Below, piece by piece: positions 8,996 through 36,018 of a stretch of 64,000 nt of DNA. Where the stretch lies: positions 522,880 to 586,879 of the forward strand of contig OY970382.1 in NCBI GenBank assembly GCA_963719425.1. Direction: 5' to 3'. The translations under genes and the position numbers were made by a program. Origin of the DNA: an uncultured bacterium. Its GTDB lineage: Bacteria > Patescibacteriota > Minisyncoccia > UBA6257 > 2-01-FULL-56-20. How positions within the stretch are numbered: the stretch's first letter is position 1; every line of letters begins with the position of its first letter. Below the pieces are notes generated by a model. It had not been told where the DNA came from and ran no database searches. It saw only the letters and a list, made by a program, of their open reading frames with translations.

Positions 8996-9060
8996 GCACG
9001 AAGCATCCCTTCCTGCCAAATTCGTCTTCGTAGGAGGCAAGAAGGGATGCTTCGTGCTCC
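8996..9060. terminator. Strong hairpin (24-bp stem gagcacgaagcatcccttcctgcc / ggcaagaagggatgcttcgtgctc) just downstream of the 9064 pilin gene stop
   Basis: Perfect inverted repeat read directly. No canonical U-tract. Confidence 0.4.
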
Positions 9061-9063
9061 TCC

Positions 9064-20769: not shown

Positions 20770-21037
20770 AGGCTTTGTTCCTTTATAACAAGATAGAATA
20801 ATAAAATCAAGAGCAATACCTATTTTCAGGCTTAATTACTGGATAATTCACCCATTTCTAGGAATAAGATTATATTGGTGAAAAGGAACACGACGATTAA
20901 TAACACCTATAAATACCGTGTTTACTCATCAATCTCAATGCTAACCACTAGCATTTACTGTACGGGGCTTGCAAGTAATCGCTAACTATGCTAGGGTCAT
21001 AAGTGCCGAGAGCCATCGGCCTTAATCAATTCAAACT

Positions 21038-21454: not shown

Positions 21455-21785
21455 AGAAATCATTGATCAGATAAGAGTTCTACTGAATGAGCTAGAGGGA
21501 TCGAAGCCCAGAGAACTGAACGCCCAGACTCATCATGCTAAGCAAACGATGAAGATCGGAAGGATTCCGACGGGCTGTATAGGTGCTATCCAGACATTAG
21601 TCGATGAGGGATTCTTAGATGAACTCCGAACTGTCCAGCAGGTTGTCGTAAAACTCAGGGAAGAAGGACAACCCTACAGCAGAGCATTAGTCTCTATGAA
21701 CTTATTGAATTTAGTGAAGCCTCCTCGGAAATTACTCCGACGCGTTAAAGATCAAGATCAGTGGCAATACATACTTAGAAAATAA
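21438..21785 (+). CDS. Hypothetical protein (AT-rich segment)
   Basis: ORF overlapping the previous stop by 17 nt, suggesting an operon. Confidence 0.4.
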   Translation: MKKTNKEIIDQIRVLLNELEGSKPRELNAQTHHAKQTMKIGRIPTGCIGAIQTLVDEGFLDELRTVQQVVVKLREEGQPYSRALVSMNLLNLVKPPRKLLRRVKDQDQWQYILRK

Positions 21786-21787
21786 AC

Positions 21788-22183
21788 ATGGCCAATCAAC
21801 TTAAAGACATACTAGACCGACTGACTAGATTAGAGGAGGTGGTGTTTGGTAACAAAGAGAAACCCGATAGTAAATTAAAGATACCAAATAAGAAAGGCAG
21901 ACTAGATTTCTCTCTTAACGAGAGAGCCTTTCTAAAAAAATACTTCTTTAAGTTTAATGGTCAACAAACATTCGCTTTAATTTGCGCTGCCTTATCGAAG
22001 GGAAAAACGGACACTCCAATCAATCTCTCGGGTATAAAGAAGACTTGGAAAAATTGCCAAGGAATCATTAAGTATCCATACAGTTCTATCTACTCTACCA
22101 GAGCGAAAGAGAACAATTGGGTTGTTCCAGGAAATAAGGCTACCTATTCGATTCGGCCTTCGTGGATAGAAATATTTAATTAA
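21788..22183 (+). CDS. Hypothetical protein (AT-rich segment)
   Basis: ORF tightly packed with its neighbours. Confidence 0.4.
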   Translation: MANQLKDILDRLTRLEEVVFGNKEKPDSKLKIPNKKGRLDFSLNERAFLKKYFFKFNGQQTFALICAALSKGKTDTPINLSGIKKTWKNCQGIIKYPYSSIYSTRAKENNWVVPGNKATYSIRPSWIEIFN

Positions 22184-22187
22184 TCCG

Positions 22188-22964
22188 ATGACAGAGGAAG
22201 AAGCTATCAAAAATGTATTGATCAAGGTCTTCCCTGCCAAGCACATTACCTCCGCGCTCGAACACTTCTCAGAGGCAGAGACAAAGTACCAACAGGAGGA
22301 TTGGGAAAAATCCTTATTGAGAAGTGGCAAGTTTATCGAATCAACATTAAAAGCCTTGTACGTTTATGCTGGTAAAACATTGCCGCCTAGTCGGCAATTT
22401 AAGGTCAGCACGGTCATTCAACAATTAGGACAACTTAGTAATAGCTACGACGACACTATCAGGCTAACCATCCCTCGTAGCTGCTCTTTCATTTACGATA
22501 TAGTTAGCAATCGAGGTGCGCGGCACGATTCAGACGATTTTGATCCAAATAAGATGGACGCTAGTGTTTCGATACCAACAATTTCATGGATATTGTCTGA
22601 AATGATCCGTTTCGCGAGTCAAACATCGCCGAGTAACGATGACGTTACTTCATTCACTGAGAGTCTGATGGAGAAAAAACATCCCCTATTTGAAACGATA
22701 GATGGCAGAATCTATGTTAACCACAAAGGATTGACTCCAAAGGATTTAGCCCTACTACTCTTATACGCGTACTATCCTAAAAGAATATCGCGAAAGGAAC
22801 TAACAGATTCTATAGAGAGGCATGGCAACTTTACCAGAAATGCAATTGCTATCGCGCTAACGAATATCAAAGACTTGGTTGATGATGACGGGACTGGTAA
22901 TTGGAAACTTCGTGAAATCGGCAGAGCTAAAGCCGCGCGGATATTAAATACATTACACTCATAG
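22188..22964 (+). CDS. Hypothetical protein (AT-rich segment)
   Basis: 258 aa ORF with no motif recognised. Confidence 0.4.
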   Translation: MTEEEAIKNVLIKVFPAKHITSALEHFSEAETKYQQEDWEKSLLRSGKFIESTLKALYVYAGKTLPPSRQFKVSTVIQQLGQLSNSYDDTIRLTIPRSCSFIYDIVSNRGARHDSDDFDPNKMDASVSIPTISWILSEMIRFASQTSPSNDDVTSFTESLMEKKHPLFETIDGRIYVNHKGLTPKDLALLLLYAYYPKRISRKELTDSIERHGNFTRNAIAIALTNIKDLVDDDGTGNWKLREIGRAKAARILNTLHS

Positions 22965-22971
22965 TTTATAA

Positions 22972-23109
22972 GGTATCCCTCCAGAAAATTTTCGGCTCGA
23001 ACCTCTTTCTTAAAAACCGCCGTGTCGAGTTTATCCCCACTACAACATACGCGGAGCTTCGCTCCGCGCGTGAAAATTTTAATAAAACCCATTCAATCCA
23101 ACTACTGGC
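22972..23109. repeat. Inverted repeat IR-R (partner of 19280..19417); on the + strand it encodes ...KVSLQKIFGSNLFLKNRRVEFIPTTTYAELRSARENFNKTHSIQLL then ASSYESTRTYFARNLS*
   Basis: Direct comparison. It would provide an alternative, stop-terminated 3' end for the recombinase if the segment inverted. Confidence 0.85.
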
Positions 23110-23149
23110 TAGTTCGTATGAGTCCACTCGTACCTATTTTGCCCGAAAT

Positions 23150-23520
23150 TTGAGCTGATTTACCCCATCATTCACCCCATCATTCGGGTATACTCGGAAT
23201 GATGGGGTAGGAAACCGAAATGCCCCCGTATATGCTCGCTTTTCTGTCGCACCGCCTCACAAACCTCAGACCCTACTTCACTCCGGTTTACCCCTACGTT
23301 CACCCCTACGTTCGGGATATGCCGGAACGTAGGGGTATGAAGTCTCAATCTCCTTACAAACGTTGGGATTTTTGATCCTCGCCGTTCAAAACTGGAAGTC
23401 CTACTTCACTCCGTTTCTGCCCTACCCAAGTGGTGTGCTCAGCCCCTCAGCCGCTCGCTGCTGCTCGGGCTTCGGGGCTTCGCGTATGGCGCGCCCAAAT
23501 TCCTCCCCCACAAAATAGCT
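23150..23520. repeat. Left arm of a ~400 bp imperfect inverted-repeat pair; contains two doubled-arm hairpin modules (23166-23215 and 23290-23340), three ctacttcactccg motifs and a 74-bp block (23436-23509) perfectly mirrored at 26465-26540
   Basis: Reverse-complement comparison with 26430..26800. Confidence 0.75.
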
Positions 23521-23571
23521 CACGGCCGCATGGCCGAGAAAATTAATAAAGATGTAAAATGTAGATGAATC

Positions 23572-25956
23572 ATGTCCAAACTAACAAAACAACAAAGACG
23601 TTCGAGAAGGAAGAGGCGGAAAGATAAGAAACGCAGAGAGAAACGCCTAAGCAGCAAAAAGACTAGGCAAAAAGCCGAGCCGTGGGTTCCTGTAAAAATG
23701 AAAATGTTTGAATTCCCCAATCCATTTCCCTCAAATGTCCCACAAGAGAAACGTTTGGAGATAATCAGATCGATAGGGGCAAACGCTAAAAGGGAGTTTG
23801 ATTTGAAATATCCAAAGATCGAAGAGTGGTTTAAAAAGTATGATCCCTTATATCTATTATCTTTTTGTCTTACTTATTTCGCATCAACACCAGAAGGAAT
23901 AGACCCAGAGGCTACTGGAGAAATGGACTTCTTTCCGTTCTATATAGAAATTATGCAAGCATTTGCGTTATATCAGGAGAGGAATTACTCTCCTAACCCC
24001 CTTTTCGGCGATGCTTCTGTTTTGAATAAAGAAATCAAAGAAATTGGAGAGCTTATGAGCGTAAGATTGATAGACATTCCTAAGGATCTAAAGACTGATG
24101 AAGAAATCCTTGCCTATAAATTAAGGACTGAAATGATGATGCAAACAACAGCTGTGAGGAATTGGGCATATTTTCATCAAATGAAAAGAGTCTCCTTGGC
24201 GTTGGCTAGTAAGATTGATAGTGATTTTAAAAAAAGCTTTGGCATCGGATCTTCTGATTTGATGAAGCTATTATTTAAACTTTCTGAAGAAAGAAATGAC
24301 TTATTAAACGACCATCTGGATAGAGTAAGAAGTTTTATAAATAAGCCTGATTATAAAGAAATAATGGAGGCGTACAACCAAGCATTCCCATCTAACAAAC
24401 GAATTGAGGCGAATGAAATGGAAGAACTCTGGAACAAAGCTGGCAAGAATAAGAAACATTTGACCGAGATGCTAATTTGCCACGCTGATTTAAAGTTGGA
24501 GAATATTTACTCTTTCACGGTAGACCATGCACTATCTCTCCTCGATGGAAATATAACCAAAGAAACTCTTAAAAATATCCTAAAAAAACTTTCTTACAAT
24601 TTTGGGGGGCTGAAAGATTTTAATAAAGAGCACATTATTCTTAGCAATCCAGTGCACAGTAAACCATTCATTAAGATTGATGAGGAAAAGTTCTATTCCG
24701 CAATTTGGGTGATATTGCCGCACCTTACATTAGACCTACTAGAAGATTTTGTCTGGGAAGATGAGGATCTTCGAGAAAAATATTCTGATATAAGATCGAA
24801 ATATCTGGAAGATGAAATAGTCAAGCTTTTTAAGAGTAATTTTCCGAATGGTACAGTTAGCAGGGGCAGTCTTTGGAAAAGTGGAATTCTTGGAAGGGAG
24901 TATGAAAACGATCTCACTCTTACTATTGATACATTCGCCATTGTAGTTGAAGCGAAATCTCAGAAATTAAGCGATCCGGCCAAACGGGGCGCACCCAAAA
25001 GATTGTTCGAAACCCTTAAAGAGTTAATAGAAGAACCATCTGAACAGGCTTTGAGATTTATAGATTATTTACAAAAGAATAAAAAGGTTCATGCATTTAA
25101 AAATAAACACGGAGAAACCAATACCATCGACAGCACCAAAATTAAGTATTACGTACCTCTCGGAGTAACTTTCTCTCATTTGGGTATGATTGGAAGTAAC
25201 TTAAAGAAACTGATTGAAGCCAAAGTCACAGACAAGCCTCTCGAAAAACTGGCTCCATCCATAAATTTTACCGACCTTGAAGGGGTCTTTGAGTTACTCC
25301 CGCTAGAAGCGGAGAAGATTCACTACCTAGCGAGAAGAAGAGAATTTGAAGCTCACGTTGAATACGATGGCGATGAGTTAGATCTTCTGGCCCTCTATCT
25401 CGAAAACGGATTCAATATCGGAGTTGCTGAGTACGACAAGAAGCATGTCTTCTTTCTTGGCATTAAATCAAAAGAATTAGATCCATATTTCATTGGAATA
25501 AACGAAGGAAGGAAGATCGCTAAACCAGAATTTGCTATGACTCAGTGGTGGAAAGATCTACTGACTACTATTTCTATGAGGAAATTTGATGGTTGGATAG
25601 AAACTTCCTTTGTTTTACTTAACAGCACCAAAGAAGATCAGGAGAAGTTTGAGGCGGGATTAAAAGAACTAATGGGACGCATTAAATCTGGGAAGGTTGA
25701 GAAGCCTCATAATTGGGTAGCTTTTATAACGGGGCCGGAAAGACGGCGATATGCAATTATTGGATATCCATATACCACTTCAGACAAAGAACTACGCGAT
25801 ACAATAATGTCTGAGGCAATTGACGGATCCGAAAAAGAGCACAAGGACATTCGAGGGATTGTGGTAATAGGAATAGACATGAATCATGCCAACTATCCTT
25901 ATAGTGTCTTCGCGCGAAGATTATCCACAAATCTTTTTGATACACTCACGCTTTAA
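23572..25956 (+). CDS. Large hypothetical protein (794 aa), extremely basic N-terminus (KQQRRSRRKRRKDKKRREKR...), possible PD-(D/E)xK-like motif (TIDTFAIVVEAKS)
   Basis: Single long ORF at ~35-40% GC. The nuclease-like motif is a weak visual call only. Confidence 0.45.
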   Translation: MSKLTKQQRRSRRKRRKDKKRREKRLSSKKTRQKAEPWVPVKMKMFEFPNPFPSNVPQEKRLEIIRSIGANAKREFDLKYPKIEEWFKKYDPLYLLSFCLTYFASTPEGIDPEATGEMDFFPFYIEIMQAFALYQERNYSPNPLFGDASVLNKEIKEIGELMSVRLIDIPKDLKTDEEILAYKLRTEMMMQTTAVRNWAYFHQMKRVSLALASKIDSDFKKSFGIGSSDLMKLLFKLSEERNDLLNDHLDRVRSFINKPDYKEIMEAYNQAFPSNKRIEANEMEELWNKAGKNKKHLTEMLICHADLKLENIYSFTVDHALSLLDGNITKETLKNILKKLSYNFGGLKDFNKEHIILSNPVHSKPFIKIDEEKFYSAIWVILPHLTLDLLEDFVWEDEDLREKYSDIRSKYLEDEIVKLFKSNFPNGTVSRGSLWKSGILGREYENDLTLTIDTFAIVVEAKSQKLSDPAKRGAPKRLFETLKELIEEPSEQALRFIDYLQKNKKVHAFKNKHGETNTIDSTKIKYYVPLGVTFSHLGMIGSNLKKLIEAKVTDKPLEKLAPSINFTDLEGVFELLPLEAEKIHYLARRREFEAHVEYDGDELDLLALYLENGFNIGVAEYDKKHVFFLGIKSKELDPYFIGINEGRKIAKPEFAMTQWWKDLLTTISMRKFDGWIETSFVLLNSTKEDQEKFEAGLKELMGRIKSGKVEKPHNWVAFITGPERRRYAIIGYPYTTSDKELRDTIMSEAIDGSEKEHKDIRGIVVIGIDMNHANYPYSVFARRLSTNLFDTLTL

Positions 25957-25968
25957 TAACAAGAGGGC

Positions 25969-26346
25969 TTAGTTTTTGAATTTTTCCAAAATCAGCCCAA
26001 CCAGCCAGTAGCAGAATCGGTAGAGCACGAAAGTGAGCACGTCAAAATAGGGATTGAAAATGATTCCCCATCCTGCTATCCAGATGATGATTGCCAGAAT
26101 CCCAAAAAAGAATATGTGGTAGAGCAGACTGCCGAGCATACCCGTTTCTCCTAGCAGGGCTTTTACCGAAGCGAGAACGAGAAGGAAGAAAAGGCCTCCG
26201 ACTATCCACGGCAGATAAGGCACTGAAGCACGCAGAGTTGCGGTGGCGACAGTTTGGAATATGAAGGTGCCCATTTCCGTTGAGGAGGCCAGAATCCTTT
26301 GGCCTAAATCCGGCGGTAGCTTGATAACTGGCAGGGTCGAGGTCAT
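25969..26346 (-). CDS. Small integral membrane protein (125 aa, 4 TM)
   Basis: Hydrophobic ORF convergent with the 794 aa gene. Confidence 0.4.
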   Translation of the reverse strand: MTSTLPVIKLPPDLGQRILASSTEMGTFIFQTVATATLRASVPYLPWIVGGLFFLLVLASVKALLGETGMLGSLLYHIFFFGILAIIIWIAGWGIIFNPYFDVLTFVLYRFCYWLVGLILEKFKN

Positions 26347-26429
26347 TTCAAGCCAAACATAAGCCAGTAGGACGATAAGGTCAAATCAAGCGTAGTTTCA
26401 TAGAAAACCACCTATTCAGAAAGATGTTG

Positions 26430-26800
26430 AGCTACCACCCTCGGGCGCGCCAAAAGGAGGGGTTGGGGGAGGAATTTGGGCGCGCCATACGCGAAGCCCC
26501 GAAGCCCGAGCAGCAGCGAGCGGCTGAGGGGCTGAGCACAGACCCGTTTAGGGGTATTGTCGGGGGTCAGGGTTTTCGAGAAAAGCGAGGTCTTGTAAGG
26601 GCAGAAGGCCGTCAGGGTAGTCAATCGTGATTGACGGGGTGATTGACTAGGTAAACCGGAGTGAAGTAGGACTTTGGATTTTGTCCGGCGAAACTCAAAA
26701 AGCCCAGCGTTTGCGGGGCGATCTGGACTTGCTACCCCTTCATTCCGAGCATACCCGAATGAAGGGGTGAATGAAGGGGTAAAACAATCAGGAATTTGCC
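26430..26800. repeat. Right arm of the ~400 bp imperfect inverted-repeat pair; contains one doubled-arm hairpin module (26737-26790) in inverted orientation
   Basis: See the left arm. Hairpin loop CGAGCATACCC is the reverse complement of left-arm loop GGGTATACTCG with one change. Confidence 0.75.
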
Positions 26801-27014
26801 ATAAAATACGCTTGGATCTGCTCATACAAGCGAGCAGTACTGGACTTTGAGAGTACAAATCGAATAAATCGCTAAGTTTCATGCGCTTTCTGTGGTCATG
26901 TCACTATTAGACCACACGGATCATTAAAAAATTCTAAAATCCGAGCCTTGCGAAAACCCGTTTCAGGAACATGTCAGGTAGAATAATTGACGTCTGATCC
27001 GACATAAGCGTACC

Positions 27015-27524
27015 ATGGGCTCCATGAGGATGCCCTGGCCCAAGAAAGTCCTAATAAAAAAGATCGGGGAGATCCTGAAGGACGGCGTTACTTACGTACT
27101 CATCGTCCTTGCATTCCTGCTCTGGCGCTTCGCCTTCGGAAATAAGTTCAAATGGGTAGAGATAAGCCCCCTGGCGCCACCTAGCATCTTTATCCGCTCG
27201 TTCTACAGCGCATTTACGTTCCTAACGCTAGGGGCACTCCTCTACGTGGCGAAATTTTATAAAGTTCTACACGACATCCTTGTGAAGGGCTTTGGACTCT
27301 GGGGCTTGTATAACGCCGTCAAGGCCGTCGTCTGGCTTATTTTGATGTTCATATCTTACGAATATGTCGTCCCGGCCATTTTTGCCGTTTTCAACACGAG
27401 TGCTACGATCCTCTACAACGTCATGGCGATCGTTTTGTATGTCGCCCCTCCGCTTGGCATTGCCATCATCCTGATCGCCGCCTATGGCCTCATTAAATAT
27501 AAATGGTTGAGCGCCAAAAGCTGA
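27015..27524 (+). CDS. Integral membrane protein (169 aa)
   Basis: Four to five hydrophobic helices with no motif. Confidence 0.4.
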   Translation: MGSMRMPWPKKVLIKKIGEILKDGVTYVLIVLAFLLWRFAFGNKFKWVEISPLAPPSIFIRSFYSAFTFLTLGALLYVAKFYKVLHDILVKGFGLWGLYNAVKAVVWLILMFISYEYVVPAIFAVFNTSATILYNVMAIVLYVAPPLGIAIILIAAYGLIKYKWLSAKS

Positions 27525-27533
27525 GGAAAATCG

Positions 27534-28652
27534 CTATAGACCAACCGAGTTAGCCCCATACTCTGCTTGTGCTTGCGTGAATTTGTCGTACTCCAACTGT
27601 GCAATGAGACTGCCGCGTGAAAAAGCGGAATACGACATGTACTGTTGCGCCGCTTTAGCCGCTTCGTCATTCCAGTTGGCTCCAGAATTATCTGCGCCAT
27701 AAACTGCTTGAGATTGTGTAAATTGATCGTGCACCAATTGAGCAACCAGCCCATCGTGAGAAAATGCCGTGTAGCTCAAATAAGATTGTGCCGCCTTAAT
27801 CGCCTGTGCGTTCCAGTCGGCGCCAACGTTATCCGCACCGTAAACCGCGTCAGACTGTGAGAATTGATCGTGCACCAATTGAGCAACCAACCCATCATGA
27901 GAAAATGCTGTGTAGTTTAAGTAAGACTGCGCCGCCCTAACCGCGTTCTGTTGGCTAACCGTTTCGTTTGATGCGGCTGATGTATTTTGACTGTTTGTTT
28001 GTTCAACTTGGGTCGGCGGCGGACTAGAAACGGTAATTATTCCGCTGCAAACCTGATTCATCGATTGGCTTCCCGAAACGATCTTCACGCTTGCACCCTT
28101 CGTACCCGTGGTCGAATACGTGAGCGACGTTGATTTTCCAGTACCGGATAGTCCGTCTGTTCCAGACCAAGAATACGAGTAACTACCGGTTCCTCCGGAG
28201 GCCTGAACTACCCATATCCCCGTCTGACCAGTGGTGAGGGTACTTTGTGCAGGAGAACATGTCGCGGAAATCGCCGGTGTCGGTGTCGGCTGTGGAGCAG
28301 TTGTTTGAGTCGTTTGATTTGGTGCAGCCGCATCGGTAACCGTTTTATTAGGCGTTGGCGTTTGCTGCGGAACGTTGGTGACTACAGGAGCCGAGGTGGT
28401 TGCAGTAGTTGACGCCGAAGGAACTGTTGCCGATTCGTTCGCGACTTGCTGGTTGGAATTTTCTACTGGGGAATTGCTTGTGGGGGTAGATGGGCTCGTG
28501 ACACCGATCAAAATAAAGAAAACTATTATTGCGCCGCCGAAAAGGAATCCGGCTTCCCTGCGGGATCGGAGCTTCAAAGACGAGGGCTTGCTAAGGCCCA
28601 CGATAAAACCAGCGATTGAAACGAGTAAGAGAAGGAAGAATAGACTGGTCAT
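27534..28652 (-). CDS. Membrane-anchored S/T-rich protein with three tandem Ltp-family-like repeats (host cell surface-exposed lipoprotein / superinfection-exclusion type)
   Basis: Three copies of AAQSYL-YTAFS-DGLVAQLVHDQF-QS-AVYGAD, matching the Ltp repeat pattern (SYL.YS.FSR.GL..QL.FD.F...A.YAV). N-terminal TM helix. Confidence 0.5.
   Translation of the reverse strand: MTSLFFLLLLVSIAGFIVGLSKPSSLKLRSRREAGFLFGGAIIVFFILIGVTSPSTPTSNSPVENSNQQVANESATVPSASTTATTSAPVVTNVPQQTPTPNKTVTDAAAPNQTTQTTAPQPTPTPAISATCSPAQSTLTTGQTGIWVVQASGGTGSYSYSWSGTDGLSGTGKSTSLTYSTTGTKGASVKIVSGSQSMNQVCSGIITVSSPPPTQVEQTNSQNTSAASNETVSQQNAVRAAQSYLNYTAFSHDGLVAQLVHDQFSQSDAVYGADNVGADWNAQAIKAAQSYLSYTAFSHDGLVAQLVHDQFTQSQAVYGADNSGANWNDEAAKAAQQYMSYSAFSRGSLIAQLEYDKFTQAQAEYGANSVGL
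27560..27960. repeat. Three ~123-bp tandem DNA repeats encoding the Ltp-like repeats
   Basis: Direct nucleotide-level repetition visible in the sequence. Confidence 0.7.
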
Positions 28653-28799
28653 TTCCTTATGGGTTCAGTGTACTATTCCATAATGAAGTTGCAAATCGGT
28701 TTGGTGTATTCCTAGGGGGCATATGACGTCCGCTCGCCGACGGTCTTAGCGGCAAGTTCCGCCAAATTGCGCCGTTCCATCATTCTTTCCTCAATGATG

Positions 28800-28865
28800 C
28801 AGGTTCGTACAGCCACTAAGCCGCCGGAGCACCTAGGAAAAGTATCGGGGAGACCGAGAGGTATC
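28800..28865. repeat. Junction motif copy a (..gGTTCgtacAgCCActaaGCCGCCGGAGCACCTAGGAAAAGTATCGGGGAGACCGAGAGGTATCG)
   Basis: Shares GCCGCCGGAGCACCTA..AAAAGT.TCGG..GAC..AGA.GG.TAT with copy d. Confidence 0.55.
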
Positions 28866-28932
28866 GCTTGATGTAACTAATTTTTTCCGTTACACTGTTG
28901 CTCGGAACGCAGTTATTTCAAGGAGGAGTACA

Positions 28933-29208
28933 ATGGCGAAGCCAATGAATCTAGGCAGCGGCGCTAATGCCGTGATTCTAAACGAACTCAGGAGGAAGGG
29001 AGGCACCGCCCGTTTGAATCTCAAGGTGCTTTCAGCCCAATCCAGCTTTAAACATGGGACTGTCAGCCATGCTCTCCATCGTTTGCAGAGAGAGGGGTTT
29101 GTCAAAATTGAAGAAGAGGGGGCCGGGTTGCGCTCACCCTTGGTCAGCCTCTGCTACCAGAACATTAATCTCCTGCCCTGCACAATCTCTACCCTGGGGC
29201 AGACGTAA
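28933..29208 (+). CDS. Small hypothetical protein, possibly winged-helix DNA-binding
   Basis: 91 aa with an HTH-like VSHALHRLQREGFV. Weak. Confidence 0.3.
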   Translation: MAKPMNLGSGANAVILNELRRKGGTARLNLKVLSAQSSFKHGTVSHALHRLQREGFVKIEEEGAGLRSPLVSLCYQNINLLPCTISTLGQT

Positions 29209-29282
29209 GCGTCTTTCACGCTTGACTTTTGCCCCTCCCACCTAAGATTGGCAACAAAAGTTGATAGTTTTAGGTGAGACAG

Positions 29283-29326
29283 GAGGTTCTCACGTCGTCC
29301 AGTCGCCGGAGCGGAGAATATCGCGG
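29283..29326. repeat. Junction motif copy b (GAGGTTCTCACGTCGTCCAGTCGCCGGAGCGGAGAATATCGCGG)
   Basis: Core GGTTCTC.C.TCGTCCAG.CGCCGGAGCGGA shared with copies d, e and f. Confidence 0.55.
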
Positions 29327-29330
29327 TAAT

Positions 29331-29702
29331 CTATTTGTCTTTATCGTCTCTGCGCACTTCGTTGGCGCCCACCTGGTTCCAATCGTGACGCCAGCGGCGC
29401 TTTTCCTCCAGGAGTTCGGCGGTGGGATTTTGAGCCCACCAACCGCCATCGGATCCCTTAAAGACAATGACATCCTTTTCCAAAACATCCGCAGGGAGGC
29501 CGTGGATATTTCTCTCTTCATCGATGATTATCGGCCAGAAAAGATGTCCTTTCAGGCTATCAACTTCTTTTGGTGTTAGCCTTCGCTTCGCCAGAACATC
29601 AAATACCTCGGAGACCTCGCCAGCATACACTTCTTTATCGGTTTCCCTGGCGTCGCCCTCGTTTGGGAGGGATTCGCTTGGCACCTCGGCGACGTTTTTC
29701 AC
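29331..29702 (-). CDS. Hypothetical protein (123 aa)
   Basis: ORF only. Confidence 0.35.
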   Translation of the reverse strand: MKNVAEVPSESLPNEGDARETDKEVYAGEVSEVFDVLAKRRLTPKEVDSLKGHLFWPIIIDEERNIHGLPADVLEKDVIVFKGSDGGWWAQNPTAELLEEKRRWRHDWNQVGANEVRRDDKDK

Positions 29703-29751
29703 ATTATCATTATAGCCTTAGTTCAATTAATTGTGCATTAGAGAGGTTCTA

Positions 29752-29784
29752 ACGAAGCGGAGAGATGAAATAATCAATAAACAG
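29752..29784. repeat. Junction motif copy c (degenerate: GAGGTTCTAACGAAGCGGAGAGATGAAATAATC)
   Basis: Matches the 5' and 3' ends of copy f. Confidence 0.4.
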
Positions 29785-29922
29785 GCGCTATTCCATACTT
29801 ACAGTAGGTTCGAACAGTTTCTACGATTCGGAGCGGATTTGACTTATCTATGATACATGTGATATAACATGCTCGGATGTTTTGAATTGGCGGCTATGCC
29901 TTAAAACAGCAGGAGGTGATAC

Positions 29923-30501
29923 TTGAGACCCTTCTTTTCCTATCTTGGCGGTGCCGTTGTTTTCCTCGTTTCGCTCTGGTACGCCTGGCGAATCTGGAGA
30001 AAGCGCGTCGAGCCTCAAAACTCGGCAAGTTGGCTGATGTGGGCCGTTATAGATGCCACCGTTCTGGCGTGTACAATCGCTGCGTACAAACCAATGTGGT
30101 TGCCTCTTGGCTACATGGTTGGTGCCTCGACTATCACTCTAGCCCTCTTTATTCGAGGCACATGGCAATGGTCCGAGAAAGAAACATTCTGTGCAGTTGG
30201 CGCAGCGGTCGCCGTAGCAATTTGGCTGACGTGGAGTGCTGCGTATGGCATCCTCGCAGGAGTCGTCGCAATGACACTTGCAGGAACACCGCTTTACGTC
30301 GATCTCATCCGGAATCCAATCCGCAAGACCTGGCCAGTGTGGTTTTTCACGGCAGTGGCCTGTGTATGTACCCTTCTTGGTTCCGATTGGAGCTTCGCAG
30401 GGACGACGCTTGCCTGGGGCGGTCTCGCTTTCAACGGGAGCCTTACGCTGGTCGTGCTGCGACCCAACCGAAGAGGTCAACAGTGTCACAAAATAAATTA
30501 A
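29923..30501 (+). CDS. Integral membrane protein (192 aa, ~6 TM)
   Basis: Hydrophobic ORF. Confidence 0.45.
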   Translation: MRPFFSYLGGAVVFLVSLWYAWRIWRKRVEPQNSASWLMWAVIDATVLACTIAAYKPMWLPLGYMVGASTITLALFIRGTWQWSEKETFCAVGAAVAVAIWLTWSAAYGILAGVVAMTLAGTPLYVDLIRNPIRKTWPVWFFTAVACVCTLLGSDWSFAGTTLAWGGLAFNGSLTLVVLRPNRRGQQCHKIN

Positions 30502-30580
30502 CCTAGCCCGATCCACAAAAGGAGGTTTGATCGGGCCCAGTCCTAAGGTTGTAATTGAATTATAATTTCAGGACTGCAGA

Positions 30581-30646
30581 TGGGTTCTCCCATCGTCCAG
30601 CCGCCGGAGCACCTAACAAAAGTTTCGGACGGACCAAGATGGGTAT
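30581..30646. repeat. Junction motif copy d (GGGTTCTCCCATCGTCCAGCCGCCGGAGCACCTAACAAAAGTTTCGGACGGACCAAGATGGGTATA)
   Basis: Best-preserved copy. Lies 65 bp upstream of the 30711 start. Confidence 0.6.
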
Positions 30647-30710
30647 AGTTCCAATGGTCGAATTAGTTCAAATCCAAGCCGTGAGTCAAAGTGTTTGATA
30701 TAATTCAATT

Positions 30711-31487
30711 ATGGAGTCCTCGCCCAGCCCGGAACCAAAAGCGGCAATCCCCAAACCAGAACATTTCCCAAACCACCTCAAAGAAGGTGTTCCCGCAATC
30801 ATGGCTTGCATCGGAACCCCCGATGATTTCAGAGAAAGTCCCGGCCTTGAGAAATTCGTCTTTCGAAAAACCTCGTTTATGGATATTCCGGGGGCTTACA
30901 ATGTAGACTATTCCGGGCCTCACCGCCTCTTGGTAGAACAAAATTTCAAAAATCCCGAAACCGGATCCTATGTCATATCTCCGATTGACGATTTTAATAA
31001 GTTTTCTCAAACATTCCATGATTGCACGGGGTTGGTGGTCGCCGGTTATGACAAAAAGACTGGTCAAAACATATCCTTTTTGAGCCATCAAGATCCAAAA
31101 TATTTTTCGGAAACTAAAGCCAATCGGGACACTCTCATATCCGACCTGAGGGAACGCCTACTGGAGCTAAAGGAAAGGTGCCGCGAGGGAACTATTGATG
31201 CGGCAATCTTCGGAGGGAAGTATCTGAAACCGGTCAATTCGGAAAATTCTCGATTATACCAGAAAAACTATCTTGACTCCATCAAACTTTTAGCGGATGA
31301 GACGAAAAAAGTCCTCGGCTTCGAACCGATTGTAATGACCGGTCCGAAGAAAGCAAGGTATGGAGCAGATGATGTTTTTTATGACAATGAACACAGAAGG
31401 CTTTATATCGCGAGACCTGAGGTTGGCGACAGTTCAACGCAAAGTTTTACTCCGAGTGCCATAGAAGACCAAGAGAAAAAGTGGTAG
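30711..31487 (+). CDS. Hypothetical protein (258 aa)
   Basis: ORF only. Confidence 0.45.
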   Translation: MESSPSPEPKAAIPKPEHFPNHLKEGVPAIMACIGTPDDFRESPGLEKFVFRKTSFMDIPGAYNVDYSGPHRLLVEQNFKNPETGSYVISPIDDFNKFSQTFHDCTGLVVAGYDKKTGQNISFLSHQDPKYFSETKANRDTLISDLRERLLELKERCREGTIDAAIFGGKYLKPVNSENSRLYQKNYLDSIKLLADETKKVLGFEPIVMTGPKKARYGADDVFYDNEHRRLYIARPEVGDSSTQSFTPSAIEDQEKKW

Positions 31488-31524
31488 TTAACCACCGAGA
31501 AGCGTCCCAGTTCTACCCTGACCC

Positions 31525-31568
31525 CAGCACAATTGAGGTTCTCCCATCCTCCAGCCGCCGGAGCGGAT
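31525..31568. repeat. Junction motif copy e (GAGGTTCTCCCATCCTCCAGCCGCCGGAGCGGATTATGG)
   Basis: Lies 20 bp upstream of the 31586 start. Confidence 0.6.
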
Positions 31569-31585
31569 TATGGTAAACTGATGCC

Positions 31586-32029
31586 ATGATTTTTGCCCAT
31601 CTTATTGTAGGGGCAATGCCGGTTGATGAGGCTCAGTTTTCCTGGTTTTGGTTTGTAGGCTCAATTATTCCCGACATCGATCACGTGTTGGTCCTCGCGC
31701 ATCGTAGAATTTTCGCATGGGATAAGATTGTTGATAGTTTGCGGCACGAGGAACAATACGGCATCCGGTTCAAAACAAAATACTTCCATTCACTGTTTGG
31801 AGCTCTTATCGTTTCTGCCCTAGTAACTTTTTTCAACCTTACGGGAGGCATATACTTCTTTTTGGCGTATCTGTTCCATCTTCTTCTTGATTGGCCAGAT
31901 AGAGATGTAAAACAATACCTGTATCCCTTCAAGAAAGAATTTCGAGGATTCTTGCCTATCTTTTCCAAAACAGAGCAAGCACTTACGGGCATTCTGTTCC
32001 TTTTAATGCTCCTGTTATACAGGTTCTAA
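31586..32029 (+). CDS. Membrane-bound metal-dependent hydrolase-like protein (YdjM/DUF457-like)
   Basis: IIPDIDHV ... HLLLDWPD histidine/aspartate motifs in a multi-TM protein. Moderate to weak. Confidence 0.4.
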   Translation: MIFAHLIVGAMPVDEAQFSWFWFVGSIIPDIDHVLVLAHRRIFAWDKIVDSLRHEEQYGIRFKTKYFHSLFGALIVSALVTFFNLTGGIYFFLAYLFHLLLDWPDRDVKQYLYPFKKEFRGFLPIFSKTEQALTGILFLLMLLLYRF

Positions 32030-32067
32030 CGTCGTCCACGCTTCGGAGCGGAGATGAGATAATCAGG
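32022..32067. repeat. Junction motif copy f (CAGGTTCTAACGTCGTCCACGCTTCGGAGCGGAGATGAGATAATC), overlapping the stop codon of the 31586 gene
   Basis: The motif begins within the final codons ...YRF* (tac agg ttc taa). Confidence 0.55.
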
Positions 32068-32143
32068 GATTTTAGCTTCTTGCGGTAGCAAAGCGTGGCA
32101 ACTCGCCGTTTTCTTTTTACTGATTCCGCGATACTATGAGCAT

Positions 32144-33445
32144 ATGAAGCCGCCCTACATTATGCGGGACATTGTGCGTCCCAAGCCCGTCGTGAGATCC
32201 AACGGCAGGAAGTTCGTTCAAGCGGTTTTTAAATTATTCGGCGCAAAGATCCCCTTTTTTATTTGGCTCGTCATCATCTTTGCCGAAACGGTTGGCGCGG
32301 TGAGAATCGCGAAGGTGTCTCAACCCGACGTGGTGACGAACGTTCCCCAAGCGGCGATTATGGTGCAAAACGTCGTCGCGCCTCCCACTTCTATCTCTAC
32401 TTCCTCTACTTCTACCGCTATTTCTACTTCTACTGTTTCCACTTCTACCGCGGCCACCATAAGGTTTGGATCATTGCCCGTAGTCAAGGTGCCTCCCTTC
32501 AAAGCAACAAGTACGGCAGTATCCAGTAGAAAAACCGCCACCCAACCGAGCCAGCCAAAGTCAGCACCAATGCCAACAGTAGTTACTGCGAGGTCGCTCT
32601 TGGACGCCACCACGCTTTCCGTGAGCGAGGAGCGTGACGATCCCTATAAAGCTACATTCGTAACAGACGCAGGCACCTACGGCAAGATAACATGGAGTCT
32701 GGACGATGCCACGCTCACCGCGAGTGATTCCATGCCGAGTTTCTCCATTTCTTTCTCTTGCAATCCGTCACCCAACATACCGGATCCCAGCGCACTTGAC
32801 CAGAATCCGACGTTCAACGTAAGGACTTCCTATACCTGCACTATAGATTTCGCTCCTGCTTCCGGGAGTGACCAGCGAACACAATCCAAGCAATTCTCTT
32901 TCACGACCGGCGCCGGGCAACTCATTATTACACCGCCGTCGTCCATGAATACTTTGCTTAATAACAACACAAACTTTGGAGGATTTACTTTCAGGAATGA
33001 CGATACCCAACCGATCACTATTACCGGCTTGGATATTGATGTTTCGTATAAGGGCTTAAATATCGCAAATACCCCTTTGGTTTTGAGGGTTGAAAATCCC
33101 GTGAGCGGAGCCTCGCTCGCCGATTACCATCTGGAAAATCTGGCGGCAGATCCGTCCTCTTCTTATGCGTATGCCGGAACGGACATTCACATCCCGCTTT
33201 CCTTCACGCTCGGCGCCGCAAGCCAGAAGATGCTTCCCGTTGATATTTTGGGGGTGCAGAGATTGAACATCTACGGGGTTAATCCAACTATCGCCGTCAC
33301 GTTGCGTGGGGTAACGACAAATCAAAGCGCGAACAAAATAGTGCTCAGCTCCCCTACCATTTCGTGGTCATGCGTCGTTCCCCTTGGCGCGTACGATCCC
33401 AATGCGACCAGCGGCCCCTATGCAACCGGTCAGGCGTGTCAGTAG
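32144..33445 (+). CDS. Secreted/membrane-anchored S/T-rich hypothetical protein (433 aa)
   Basis: N-terminal TM helix and an STSTAISTSTVSTSTAAT linker. Confidence 0.45.
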   Translation: MKPPYIMRDIVRPKPVVRSNGRKFVQAVFKLFGAKIPFFIWLVIIFAETVGAVRIAKVSQPDVVTNVPQAAIMVQNVVAPPTSISTSSTSTAISTSTVSTSTAATIRFGSLPVVKVPPFKATSTAVSSRKTATQPSQPKSAPMPTVVTARSLLDATTLSVSEERDDPYKATFVTDAGTYGKITWSLDDATLTASDSMPSFSISFSCNPSPNIPDPSALDQNPTFNVRTSYTCTIDFAPASGSDQRTQSKQFSFTTGAGQLIITPPSSMNTLLNNNTNFGGFTFRNDDTQPITITGLDIDVSYKGLNIANTPLVLRVENPVSGASLADYHLENLAADPSSSYAYAGTDIHIPLSFTLGAASQKMLPVDILGVQRLNIYGVNPTIAVTLRGVTTNQSANKIVLSSPTISWSCVVPLGAYDPNATSGPYATGQACQ

Positions 33446-33466
33446 CAACCCCGGATGGAGAACCCA

Positions 33467-33862
33467 TTAGTCCGCGTTCAACCTCTCATACACTTCACCG
33501 GCCAATTTTCTGAACAACGCCCGCTTTCTCCAGAAAAAATTGCTCTCGGAAAACTCCTGATTCCGGATCCGACCTAGGTCCCGGACGTTCATGTAGCGCG
33601 CATGTCCAAGATCCTTATTGGTTTTCACACCGGCATCCTCCAGCCCCTGATAAATTTGCCGCAGATAACCGTATTTGGTCGGGATATTGAGCTCGCGGCT
33701 GATCTTTGTGCGGTACGTAAGGCCGTCGGAAAAGGCCGGATTCAATTCAATATATTTAATGAAACCGTGGATGGCCTCAAAGAGGCCGAATCCCTCGGGC
33801 GCTTGTAAAACCTTTTGAAATTTCTTATCCAGATCAAGTTTTGTCTTTTTAAGGAGTTTCAT
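33467..33862 (-). CDS. Hypothetical protein (131 aa)
   Basis: ORF only. Confidence 0.4.
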   Translation of the reverse strand: MKLLKKTKLDLDKKFQKVLQAPEGFGLFEAIHGFIKYIELNPAFSDGLTYRTKISRELNIPTKYGYLRQIYQGLEDAGVKTNKDLGHARYMNVRDLGRIRNQEFSESNFFWRKRALFRKLAGEVYERLNAD

Positions 33863-33969
33863 ACTGGTATATAAAGACTAACACGTTCCAGATCAAAAAG
33901 CCACCGAGTCCCCTCCATGGTGGCTTTCCAGAAGAAGGCCGCAGATAGTACGCCCGGGCTGGCGCACGC

Positions 33970-34386
33970 TTACATAAATCCCAAGTACAGCAAAACCAAG
34001 CCCAGAATAAAGGCAACAATCCCCCCGAACACGAGCACGACGTCTGTATTGCACTTTCGGTACAGCGAGATGGCGGGGCCGGGAAGCAGGAGGAGGTAAG
34101 CCCCCTTTATGAGCGTGAGCCATCCGAGGATCGTGACGAGCAAGGGCAGTCCTGAGGTCCAGACATTATTCATCACAATGAGCACGGCGCCCATGGTCAA
34201 AATGAGAAAGCCCCACAACCACAAGAATCCTCGGTCCTGCGTTACCTTTTCAAGAGCAGCAGCCACATTCCTTCTATCGAAGACCACCGATATGCCCATT
34301 ACCGCGATAACAATCCCCAGTACTTGAGTAATAGCGACGGAAACGTTCATATATTTATGTTGGTGATATAAAACCGACCTTTCCAT
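33970..34386 (-). CDS. Integral membrane protein (138 aa)
   Basis: Four hydrophobic helices. Confidence 0.4.
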   Translation of the reverse strand: MERSVLYHQHKYMNVSVAITQVLGIVIAVMGISVVFDRRNVAAALEKVTQDRGFLWLWGFLILTMGAVLIVMNNVWTSGLPLLVTILGWLTLIKGAYLLLLPGPAISLYRKCNTDVVLVFGGIVAFILGLVLLYLGFM

Positions 34387-34542
34387 TATTATAACGCTAT
34401 TGAGGGCGAGAATATCGGCATTCAGGAATTTTGCGGCTTCCAGCGGTTCTGGTTCCTGCCGCCGGTACGGGTTTGTGATCTCGGCTTGGGCAAAAGAAAA
34501 AAGCGCCCTGAGAAGGCACTTTCTTCTTTTGGAACAAGACTC

Positions 34543-34854
34543 TTACATCTTTCCTTCGTGCTTTGCCCAACAACCGCAGGATCTCTTGCCCAGCTTCACG
34601 CATCCCACGATGATAACGAGGATCGGCCAGATGACGTTGACAAACCCCCACGTGAGGATGCCGAGCGCCCCGAGCAGGAAATCCAACCCGAAAAGGATGA
34701 CGAGAATCGGCATAGCCTTATGGCACCCGCACCCGCACGTCTTCCCGCCCATTTTTACACCGTTATTTTCCATGATACGTAGTTTGGAGTATACCGACCT
34801 TTCGCTGACTATGTGTTCCATTTCATTATACCTCGTCCAGCTGTCGGTAATCAA
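34543..34854 (-). CDS. Small Cys-rich membrane protein (CGCGCH ... CGCW motifs)
   Basis: Short ORF. The start is uncertain. Confidence 0.3.
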   Translation of the reverse strand: MITDSWTRYNEMEHIVSERSVYSKLRIMENNGVKMGGKTCGCGCHKAMPILVILFGLDFLLGALGILTWGFVNVIWPILVIIVGCVKLGKRSCGCWAKHEGKM

Positions 34855-34872
34855 TCTCTCACGCGTTACCTA

Positions 34873-35331
34873 TCAGCCCTGCTGTTCCGCCATTGACATA
34901 AGCTGCTTCACCAAGTCCTCTTTGGAAAATCGCTCGTAGTTTACGGCAATGCTGCCGTCACTCACGTAGGTGATTCTATCTCCGAAGACAATCAGGGTGA
35001 TCCGTAACTTTTCGAAATTGCTGCGCCCAATCCGCTTGGCCGTTTCCTCGAATGCATCAATAAGTTTCCACAACTGATACTGCTCCTTATCTTTGCCTCG
35101 GGAGATGAACCCAGCGAAATCCACATTGGGATAGCGGATTACCAATTGCTCAAGGCTTGAGATAGTCGAGACTGCGCTGTGAGGATCTTGCCCCGTGGCC
35201 GACGCGTCACGAGCCAACATCTTCTTAAGGTACTCCATGACAAGCTCTTGCTGGGCACGGGGAAGAGAAGAGAGTTTTGTCATAACCTCTTCGAAAACGA
35301 TTCCCCTATCTTCATGGTATGGAGAACTCAC
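34873..35331 (-). CDS. Hypothetical protein (152 aa)
   Basis: ORF only. Confidence 0.4.
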   Translation of the reverse strand: MSSPYHEDRGIVFEEVMTKLSSLPRAQQELVMEYLKKMLARDASATGQDPHSAVSTISSLEQLVIRYPNVDFAGFISRGKDKEQYQLWKLIDAFEETAKRIGRSNFEKLRITLIVFGDRITYVSDGSIAVNYERFSKEDLVKQLMSMAEQQG

Positions 35332-35406
35332 CTTTGCAGTATACTCCAGGCTCTCACATCGTCCAACGCCGGATCCCTCTCGAATTCGAAATGATATTGG
35401 AGCTTT

Positions 35407-36018
35407 TTATAGCGCCGCCAATATTTCTTTTGTTTTCCGCACAAGGCCAATGCGTGGAAATGTTTTGGTGATAGTGAACGTATGCTCTTCAGCCGACATG
35501 GCGGACATGGCATCTTCCGCAAAGATCTGCTGATACCCGTATTCATACGCGAACCGCGCGGTGCTCTCAACACCGATGTTTGTTGATATGCCGCACAGCA
35601 CCACGGTGGTTATGCCGCGCCGTCTGAATTCCAAATCAAGCCCCGTGCCGTAGAAAGCGCCCCATTGATGCTTCGTGATCACGAAATCACCCTGCTTCGG
35701 TCCCATCTGGGGAACGATTTCCGCCCAATCCGGCGGAAAAGGTTGCGCGGGCACTGGCCTCGCCACATCAGCGATGGGATGCAACGCGTCTTTTCCATCC
35801 GGAGACGGGGTGACCCGCACCAGAAATACCGGCATGCCGTTCTTTCTGAAGGCCTCGGCAAGCGCAGCCGCATTTTTTACGACGGTTGCGGACGCATATG
35901 GCACGGTTTGCCGCCCCGCGATACCTTTTTGGAGATCAATGACGACCAACGCCGTCTTTGATCTATCAATGGATAGGTTGCTCATCTCTGTTATATTACC
36001 ACTTTCGGGTAGAACCAC
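35407..36018 (-). CDS. Isochorismatase-family cysteine hydrolase
   Basis: ALVVIDLQKG, FLVRV, TTVVLCGISTNIGVEST (catalytic Cys region). Confidence 0.7.
   Translation of the reverse strand: MVLPESGNITEMSNLSIDRSKTALVVIDLQKGIAGRQTVPYASATVVKNAAALAEAFRKNGMPVFLVRVTPSPDGKDALHPIADVARPVPAQPFPPDWAEIVPQMGPKQGDFVITKHQWGAFYGTGLDLEFRRRGITTVVLCGISTNIGVESTARFAYEYGYQQIFAEDAMSAMSAEEHTFTITKTFPRIGLVRKTKEILAAL

Follow-up and report, generated by a model that had tools for sequence, protein, structure and literature searches.

In staphylococci, the staphylococcal cassette chromosome (SCC) and SCC-like islands reside at the rlmH (orfX) gene and depend on the large serine recombinases (LSRs) CcrAB or CcrC, and cassettes that lack a recombinase are mobilized in trans (PMC11470126). 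In Prochlorococcus, tycheposon islands arise through serial integration at tRNA genes, with a partial tRNA left between successive elements and degraded remnants that carry further partial tRNAs (bioRxiv 10.1101/2020.12.28.424599). According to Rutherford et al. 2013 (PMC3783163), the attB and attP sites of serine integrases have their proximal motif in register but differ in the place of the zinc-ribbon-domain motif, which is 5 bp nearer to the center in attB. Here, we describe an array of small gene cassettes, separated by copies of a conserved junction motif and located behind a tRNA-Asn gene, in a 64,000-nt stretch of DNA from an uncultured patescibacterium of the lineage Minisyncoccia (assembly GCA_963719425.1, contig OY970382.1, positions 522,880 to 586,879; hereafter, the window). 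Patescibacteria, also known as the candidate phyla radiation (CPR), have ~1-Mb genomes with few recognized mobile elements, and their ways of acquiring and exchanging accessory genes are poorly understood.

The explanation that we favor as likely is that each motif copy is a junction made up of a P arm and the crossover core, left behind as elements integrated one after another into the 3' end of tRNA-Asn(GTT), most likely with LSRs as the enzymes. Direct reading of positions 28500-32400, combined with alignment, revealed seven co-oriented copies on the plus strand within 28801-32051; these share the core pattern AGGTTC-N18-GGAGC and a 28-nt core, GGTTCTAACATCGTCCAGCCGCCGGAGC. Remnants of the motif extend farther downstream. 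The copies are as follows.

28801-28831, plus strand: junction copy a, AGGTTCGTACAGCCACTAAGCCGCCGGAGC, with a 29-nt span
29284-29314, plus strand: junction copy b, AGGTTCTCACGTCGTCCAGTCGCCGGAGCGG (nhmmer E=2e-8)
29743-29775, plus strand: junction copy c, internally deleted, GAGGTTCTAACG followed by AAGCGGAGAGATG; the deletion joins GGTTCTAACG to AAGCGGAG
29806-29836, plus strand: junction copy g, AGGTTCGAACAGTTTCTACGATTCGGAGCGG
30582-30611, plus strand: junction copy d, GGGTTCTCCCATCGTCCAGCCGCCGGAGC, then the extension ACCTAACAAAAGTTTCGGACGGACC
31535-31566, plus strand: junction copy e, GAGGTTCTCCCATCCTCCAGCCGCCGGAGCGG
32019-32051, plus strand: junction copy f, ACAGGTTCTAACGTCGTCCACGCTTCGGAGCGG, overlapping the stop codon of a YdjM-like open reading frame (ORF)
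33454-33465, inverted: left half of the motif
34445-34468, plus strand: decayed junction, GGTTCTGGTTCCTGCCGCCGGTAC
34831-34847: partial junction, a decayed copy, CCTCGTCCAGCTGTCGG
35349-35372, plus strand: last, decayed junction, GGCTCTCACATCGTCCAACGCCGG, at the distal edge of the island

The initial annotation of this DNA, made from the sequence alone, had reported six copies, all of which are indeed present on the plus strand at or near the places it gave, but it had overlooked copy g, and its limits for the region (28800-32070) were too narrow: the island covers ~19284-35400, with decayed copies on to 35372. Its division of the copies into two 3' subtypes holds, as copies a and d continue with ACCTAnnAAAAGTnTCGG (83% identity over 41 nt), whereas copies b, c, g, e, and f continue with GGAGA or GGATT. 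The copies fall between ORFs, again as described there, and copy f overlaps the TAA stop of the ORF at 31586-32029. The 20-mer core has 3 matches at up to 3 mismatches (0.00 expected from shuffles), CGGAGCGGAKW has 4 (0.20 expected), and AGGTTCKNAC has 5 (0.67 expected), so a chance origin of the repetition is excluded. The decayed copies and the inverted left half came from a profile search, and the rest of the 64 kb contains no copies. For comparison with other genomes, a degenerate 28-mer scan of one genome per species was used, which returned 34 loci; the 8-kb blocks are referred to below by L-numbers.

The origin of the motif and the anchor of the array, 9.5 kb upstream, had both been absent from the initial annotation. 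The anchor is the following gene, read directly from the sequence.

18972-19283, plus strand: tRNA-Asn(GTT) gene, the island anchor (attB side), with exon 1 at 18972-19005, exon 2 at 19243-19283, and the 3' end CCAGGTTCGAGTCCTGGCGCCGGAGCCA

The two exons are separated by a 237-nt group-I-like intron (~19006-19242) after the anticodon, which matches Rfam Intron_gpI with E=0.037, below the gathering threshold. Because this intron interrupts the gene, neither ARAGORN nor Rfam at gathering threshold detected the window tRNA-Asn; except for the insert, it is the same as the intact tRNA-Asn of L030 and L009. An identity as tRNA-Asp was considered and rejected, as the gene is a tRNA-Asn with an intron after the anticodon. 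Apparently the same intron is found in the tRNA-Asn genes of L036 and L028, whereas those of L030 and L009 lack it.

Alignment of the tRNA end, CCAGGTTCGAG-----TCCTGGCGCCGGAGC(CA), with the motif, ACAGGTTCTAACATCGTCCAGCCGCCGGAGC, shows that two parts of the tRNA end, GGTTC (distal) and TCCnnnnnnnGGAGC (proximal), are retained in the motif but stand exactly 5 bases farther apart. Measured from GGTTC through GGAGC, tRNA-Asn has 23 nt, and 60 of 61 motif copies from ~25 genomes have 28 nt. In the sequence logo, T14-C15-C16-A17 and C23-G-G-A-G-C28 are in register with the tRNA and GGTTC is shifted by 5; GGTTC, TCCA, and CGGAGC are near-invariant, and on either side of the 28-mer conservation drops sharply (a copy had to have C23-C28 to be selected, so that only the drop outside these positions is informative). 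The motif thus has the distal-motif spacing of an LSR attP, and, with the +5 spacing and the proximal part in register, the tRNA end and the motif correspond to each other as the B and P half-sites of one LSR would. It is not the exact 3' tRNA copy typical of Islander-type elements: the displaced repeat exceeds the tRNA end by 5 nt, and its T-stem is broken (CAGG...CCAG versus CCAGG...CCTGG). For the same reason, and because there is no 5' acceptor strand, the motif was rejected as a true tRNA fragment or a tRNA-like minihelix. The 28-mer is nearly invariant across unrelated cassettes and between Paceibacterota and Saccharibacteria, which argues that the site as such is under constraint. To the right of the junctions there is neither a common sequence nor a P' consensus, only several recurrent classes, as would be expected if the crossover occurs at the core.

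According to this explanation, the attP site of an incoming element (P arm-core-P') would recombine with the tRNA end (B arm-core-flank), regenerating the tRNA as B-core-P' and displacing P-core, now joined to the former flank, downstream. Repeated rounds would build an array in which the newest module and its P-core follow the tRNA and the oldest lie farthest away, so that each junction would consist of P(k)-core and the left end of module k-1. The P arm would mimic the tRNA end, with GGTTC corresponding to the T-loop and TCC...GGAGC to the T-stem, acceptor strand, and discriminator. Strand exchange is placed within GGAGC(C), because this is the only identity common to all partner sites and conservation ends there. 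In the window, an old array (28832-35400) would have been joined by an element ending in copy a, then by the LSR-A element described below, whose distal end would later have been deleted. Positions 28801-32051 would be the older part of the island, made of single-gene modules, and the LSR-A module with its cargo would be the newest arrival at the tRNA. The contents of the island are as follows.

19150-20769, minus strand: gene for a large serine recombinase (LSR-A) with Pfam Resolvase, Recombinase, and Zn_ribbon_recom domains; its 3' end runs into the tRNA 3' end
19284-23140: LSR-A module of 3.9 kb, with inverted repeats at 19283-19428 and 22968-23111 (143 of 145 positions identical)
23108-23140, minus strand: inverted P* arm that ends the LSR-A module, AAAATAGGTACGAGTGGACTCATACGAACTAGC
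23141-28800: cargo between the LSR-A module and copy a, encoding a 794-aa protein, membrane proteins, and an Ltp lipoprotein
28832-32018, plus strand: five gene cassettes and one empty module, between junctions
28933-29208, plus strand: MarR-like winged helix-turn-helix ORF (Pfam)
29331-29702, minus strand: ORF without a Pfam match
29923-30501, plus strand: membrane protein ORF without a Pfam match
30711-31487, plus strand: ORF without a Pfam match
31586-32029, plus strand: YdjM-like ORF (Pfam)
32052-33453, plus strand: cassette with a 433-aa ORF (32144-33445), 87% identical to L028 5896-7313
33454-34444, minus strand: inverted cassette with two minus-strand ORFs, beginning with GATGGAGAACCC
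34469-34847: shared cassette, matching L016 5810-6172 (89%) and L028 7381-7705 (83%)

An isochorismatase gene (35407-36018, minus strand) begins just beyond the last decayed junction. The winged helix-turn-helix and YdjM-like assignments, and the absence of Pfam matches for the other cassette ORFs, agree with the original description of these genes. The module between copies c and g is only 63 nt long. An exact-sequence lookup of the 258-aa cassette protein returned no record. The G+C content of the cargo is 0.36 to 0.39 at 24-26 kb and ~0.5 from 26 kb on, and the cargo at 23141-28800 has no homologues in any of the loci fetched.

Comparison of related genomes reveals turnover of cassettes at the motif. 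The window and L028 are ~87% identical and have the genes up to the tRNA in common; their homology ends at 19281, the tRNA end, restarts at 32021 within copy f, and then reaches 33453, which is the exact left edge of the next L028 motif. Between the first two breakpoints there are 12.7 kb of DNA in the window and a different 4.7 kb in L028. The initial suggestion of a cassette array with recombination junctions is borne out in this respect, as related genomes differ in their cassettes and homology breaks at motif edges. The cassette with the 433-aa ORF has different neighbors on both sides in the window and in L028, and the cassette at 34469-34847 (homology over 34480-34847) occurs in three different array contexts, those of the window, L016, and L028. 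One cassette is even present twice in a single genome (L008 4345-5086 and L028 5180-5924, 88% identity), with unrelated neighbors on both sides. The inverted cassette at 33454-34444 is missing from L028 at that point and abuts the decayed junction at 34445-34468; its first nucleotides, GATGGAGAACCC, are the reverse complement of the left half of the motif, GGGTTCTCCATC. Either an inversion or an insertion in reverse orientation at a junction may have produced this arrangement. The breaks in split copies (L013, L027) and in deleted copies (window copy c and L004) fall between motif positions ~10 and 17. In L013 (1273-1331) and L027 (2052-2100), the junction motif is split by a 24-nt insert, with a small hairpin inside the site; the L013 copy reads ...CATCCTCCA + TCCCCCTCAGAGCCCTGAGGGGGA + TCCACGATTCGGAGC, with TCCA duplicated.

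The original flank of the tRNA gene can also be traced. In L030 and L009, an intact tRNA-Asn is directly followed by ACCTAGTAAAAGTATCCGGGAGACCGAGAGG, which is the extension of the a/d subtype, and in the window the same flank, ACCTAGGAAAAGTATCGGGGAGACCGAGAGGTAT (28832-28865), directly follows copy a. The tRNA flank thus sits behind copy a, which implies that the insertion of 19284-28831 separated the tRNA core from the flank it once had. L030 has the simple order of tRNA, ACCTAG flank, and cassette, and in L028 a 2.2-kb module is inserted between the tRNA core and the L030-type flank with its cassette; this insert has its own ACCTAG-type left end and carries the arm plus GGAGC at its right end. 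Neither L030 nor L028 has the cargo at 23141-28800 between its tRNA and ACCTAG flank. A small hairpin, TCGG-GGAGA-CCGA (variants TTGG/CCGG), is conserved in the ACCTAGnAAAAGTATCGGGGAGACCGAGAGG extension, which is found in the window (28832-28865 and 30612-30645), L030 (3951-3985), L009, and L028 (1207-1240), behind several junctions as well as behind intact tRNA-Asn. This extension may represent the left ends (P' class) of one family of cassettes or an element for tRNA 3' processing or termination.

Five of the 34 scan loci are coding-sequence coincidences in Chloroflexota, Bacteroidales, and Actinobacteria; the remaining ones come mostly from metagenome-assembled genomes (MAGs) of Patescibacteria (Minisyncoccia, Paceibacterota, and Saccharibacteria), with a few under other labels. 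The profile search found 7 or 8 co-oriented copies per 8 kb in L004, L007, L011, L012, and L016, and adjoining blocks extend the arrays to at least 24 kb in OY970175.1 (L028, L032, and L008), at least 15 kb in JBEKML01 (L009 and L012), and at least 10 kb in JBEKRC01 (L030 and L016). Within an array, every copy is on one strand. Across 60 intervals, successive copies are a median of 712 bp apart, and two modules fall below 150 nt ("empty" modules of 63 to 97 nt). According to ARAGORN, a co-oriented tRNA-Asn(GTT) lies just upstream of the copies in L003, L009, L020, L025, L030, L031, and L033. Such loci begin with an intact tRNA and have att repeats, all in the same orientation, at the module boundaries, the arrangement expected of tandem accretion.

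The only recombinase encoded in the window, LSR-A, belongs to a very large CPR family, with 4,347 homologues at E ≤ 1e-20 among the 8,000 candidates scored. Its gene abuts a tRNA 3' end in ~40 of 80 metagenome loci (L039-L118) and in three others; the target is tRNA-Asn, -Gln, -Glu, -Thr, -Tyr, -Val, -Arg, -Gly, -Ser, or -Leu, and the family members at those loci are at least 51% identical to the window protein. These elements carry an inverted copy of the LSR 3' end 2 to 10 kb away, followed by a reverse-complement P* arm with the consensus AAAATAGGTTCGAGC-N8-GTATAGAG, then the last 4 to 5 nt of the target tRNA, with +4 spacing and a TATAGAG end. A direct P* copy, a perfect 36/36 match, is found at the far end in L037, L054, L063, L095, and L100. 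The full architecture reads tRNA, core, a terminal inverted repeat (TIR) pair enclosing the LSR gene and 1 to 4 further genes, core, inverted P*, cargo, direct P*, core, and flank; it was seen in at least 40 metagenome loci (among them L037, L043, L048, L054, L063, L095, and L100), and the TIR includes the last ~50 codons of the LSR gene. We know of no described serine-integrase element with this architecture. A circular form would contain two identical inverted attP-like sites, so that the LSR segment could invert, or the element could integrate in two ways. In the P* arm, the T-loop-like AGGTTCGAGC is kept and only the last 4 to 5 nt match the particular tRNA, which suggests that LSR-A retargeting may rely on the universal T-loop as the distal recognition motif. 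About one-quarter of LSR-A contigs end within 60 nt of the LSR 3' end, and this clustering suggests that assemblies break at that repeat.

LSR-A is probably not the enzyme that makes the junctions, since it uses P*, a different P-type arm. A use of the junction motif as the far end of LSR-A elements was considered and rejected in view of the five P* far ends listed above, and the junction motif in L037 is the next seam of a pre-existing array. A search for LSR-A far ends by identity to the tRNA end found none. Only the inverted P* is present in the window, so the far end of its LSR-A element has been lost or replaced. A better candidate is probably a second recombinase, LSR-B, which is 24% identical to LSR-A and has 1,718 homologues at E ≤ 1e-20. 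In all new loci for which downstream sequence exists (L119, L121/L122, L123/L124, and L126), the LSR-B gene is adjacent to tRNA-Asn, and the far ends of three independent LSR-B elements of 7 to 11 kb are junction-type motifs with a 28-nt span.

L034: LSR-B far end, TGGTTCTAACAGCGTCCACGATCCGGAGCCA plus a terminator; target tRNA called Gln by ARAGORN
L119: LSR-B far end, AGTTCTAAATGTGTCCAATAACGGGAGCCA plus a terminator; target tRNA-Asn
L121/L122: LSR-B far end, GGTTCTAAACCTATCCAACCACGGGAGC; target tRNA-Asn

In these three elements, the LSR gene lies inside the element beside one att site and the motif is at the opposite end as a hybrid site, which is not the case for the window's own enzyme, whose cognate arm is P*. 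In L121/L122, the sequence beyond the motif is similar to the P' arm of an older LSR-B element, direct evidence of tandem accretion. The elements in L119 and L121-L126 carry a conserved module of ~410-, ~50-, and ~380-aa proteins plus an HTH_17 protein, the latter a candidate excisionase (recombination directionality factor). The cargo of LSR-B elements includes type I or type III-like restriction-modification systems or Mrr-type nucleases, and these elements are defense islands of CPR bacteria. We infer that LSR-B-type enzymes made the small cassettes and may still be able to move them in trans; the combination of small modules with a conserved 28-mer suggests that the modules are, or were, individually mobilizable mini-elements served in this way.

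Several observations speak against assigning the junctions to LSRs. Apart from the different arm used by LSR-A, the LSR-B gene is absent from the window and from all array loci, which leaves either action of the enzyme in trans or fossil arrays; no LSR-B far end was found within 10 kb in L123 and L126, and the link to LSR-B comes from three elements. A canonical LSR attP consists of two related inverted half-sites, and here the right arm is not conserved; the right flank without a common sequence is what would be expected of hybrid junctions, and the crossover is bounded only to GGAGC(C). In addition, the motif was not found in viral contigs (IMG/VR). A phage attP was also rejected as its source, given this absence and the lack of a close LSR-A homologue there, the only one being at 32% identity.

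The missing enzyme is also what one would expect if the junctions were fossil scars, that is, inert remnants of 7- to 11-kb integrative elements that have decayed to single genes, with cassettes that are no longer, and never were, individually mobile. The decayed, split, or deleted copies (window copy c, 34445, 35349, L013, L027, and L004) and the tandem full-size accretion in L121 would also fit. We nevertheless consider this unlikely: the modules have a median of ~710 bp and include empty ones of 63 to 97 nt, the same cassette recurs in different arrays with homology ending at the motif, and a near-invariant 28-mer would not be expected of unselected scars under strong deletion bias. Nor were LSR gene fragments found inside the small-cassette arrays, the few short LSR-like matches being located at tRNA genes or inside LSR-A elements. 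Arrays devoid of any recombinase could, alternatively, be the work of a non-LSR enzyme encoded elsewhere, such as a tyrosine integrase or an Xer-type recombinase, with the LSR link reflecting a coincidence of shared tRNA targets, and tyrosine integrases are the usual enzymes at tRNA genes (Islander, PMC4383910). That is improbable, given that they leave a true tRNA fragment rather than a repeat 5 nt longer with a broken T-stem, that three LSR-B elements end in the motif, and that the motif lacks dif/Xer-type dyad symmetry, which also led us to reject a dif/Xer or pdif-type 28-bp site. No tyrosine-recombinase domain was detected in the 30 window ORFs scanned, including most of those of at least 180 aa, and no recombinase family recurs in the 8-kb array loci.

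The initial annotation had also raised a promoter or ribosome-binding leader as an alternative to a recombination site, and, more broadly, the motif could act in transcription or as RNA, whether as promoter, leader, or a structured or tRNA-like signal that punctuates transcripts, for example in processing or in association with terminators. Its copies are intergenic and mostly co-oriented with the downstream ORF (the longest ORF is in the same orientation in 35 intervals and opposite in 16), and extended -10-like TGnTATAAT boxes or terminators often follow it in other genomes. Yet the consensus of 64 distinct copies folds into no more than a 3-bp stem (-1.2 kcal/mol) and shows no covariation, no Rfam family matches either at gathering threshold or at E ≤ 1, and the 5' acceptor strand of a tRNA-like minihelix is absent. 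There are 7 sigma-70-type sites versus 6.0 expected, none of them in the motif; promoter- and terminator-like sites in 28600-35500 are not enriched, and none is consistently placed at the motif, whose distance to the following promoter, terminator, or ORF on either strand is variable. A generic promoter would be expected upstream of unrelated housekeeping genes, and the genome scan showed no such spread, the motif being confined to arrays behind tRNA-Asn. A role of this kind is therefore very improbable. A CRISPR repeat was rejected as well, as the spacing ranges from 0.06 to 3.4 kb and the intervals contain genes.

Two further regions were noted in the window. The first, "island 1" (2536-9065), is a second variable hotspot, located behind tRNA-Glu(TTC) (2536-2609); the window (2519-9064) and L018 (3423-7548) differ here between conserved flanks. 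Its genes include an Mrr-type nuclease (2838-3659) and a Hypoth_Ymh protein (4349-5140), and it contains four copies (2613, 4041, 4175, and 4241) of a hairpin repeat, GGAAAAGTTGCCG-N4-CGGCAA, as well as direct repeats of 155 to 175 nt with 78 to 81% identity in two families (3906-4175, 5175-5329, and 5950-6124). The L018 hotspot holds tRNA-Asn-type junction motifs (~3833 and ~4903), although the neighboring tRNA is Glu. The second region, 45492-48128, encodes an 878-aa fused restriction-modification protein (HSDR_N, N6_Mtase, and Eco57I-type) and lies in a sharp low-G+C trough (0.37 to 0.38 versus ~0.56 in the flanks); it has the look of a further recent insertion, into a cluster of purine-biosynthesis genes.

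Among the described systems, SCC composite islands appear to be the most like this array in their way of working. Both have tandem cassettes behind the 3' end of one gene, with att repeats derived from that gene end, many recombinase-less cassettes, and a cargo rich in defense and accessory genes. However, the target is a tRNA gene here and a protein-coding gene in SCC, the LSR families are putatively unrelated to Ccr at the family level, and the modules are single genes of ~0.7 kb, compared with 20 to 70 kb for SCC; the repeat is an attP-type arm 5 bp longer than the target, and mobility is putative here. Tycheposon islands likewise use one tRNA gene, with older elements pushed inward, but their repeats are true partial tRNAs and their enzymes mostly tyrosine recombinases (910 of 937 elements), whereas here a pseudo-tRNA end with 5 additional nucleotides is linked to LSRs and the modules are far smaller and more numerous. 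Canonical serine-integrase sites (Listeria phage A118/LI, Bxb1, and phiC31) have in common with this one a short shared core, the 5-bp distal shift (PMC3783163), and an adjacent recombinase gene; they differ in that here one arm is conserved, the target is the universal tRNA T-loop plus acceptor end, and the arrays are long.

The likeness to integrons, which the initial annotation had pointed out, consists of long co-oriented arrays of mostly single-gene, mostly promoterless-looking cassettes with one conserved site each and a content that varies between strains. Neither IntI with attI and Pc (30 window ORFs scanned) nor attC was found, and the site is conserved in sequence, not in fold: it has no RYYYAAC...GTTRRRY pairing and no palindrome (R''-L''...L'-R'), in accord with the earlier remark that it does not resemble attC. 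Moreover, the array is anchored at a tRNA gene, and the orientation bias of its ORFs is only ~2:1. An integron origin was accordingly rejected, and the likely enzyme is an LSR, not an integron integrase. The array system is a member of none of the SCC islands, tycheposon islands, or integrons. The general mechanism, site-specific accretion at a tRNA gene, is known; single-gene CPR arrays with a 5-bp-stretched tRNA-Asn P arm are, to our knowledge, apparently undescribed, and literature searches found nothing on such arrays bounded by a tRNA-Asn-mimicking LSR P arm.

A tentative extension of the serial-integration explanation, which we regard as possible but doubtful, is that these arrays constitute a phylum-wide cassette-capture system of Patescibacteria, equivalent to integrons, in which single-gene mini-cassettes are inserted and excised at tRNA-Asn by LSRs supplied in trans from rare 7- to 11-kb defense-carrying elements. 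The 28-nt attP-type half-site plus core would then be the only conserved feature of a cassette, and a large share of the strain-specific genes in these reduced genomes would reside in chromosomal arrays of 10 to 24 kb.

For serine integrases in general, the site offers a natural, phylogenetically replicated case of the attP/attB "5-bp shift," and the ability of a single LSR family to retarget to at least 10 tRNAs would be explained if distal recognition is through the T-loop. For genome engineering, the same loci provide many new pairs of integrase and att site, the sites being short and well defined. In CPR MAGs, the flexible gene pool can be located simply by means of the 28-mer, which also accounts for assembly breaks at such loci. 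For the bacteria themselves, the arrays reveal a specific and widely conserved route of gene acquisition: a single tRNA gene is the landing pad, and small accessory genes collect behind it by the dozen, differing between close relatives.

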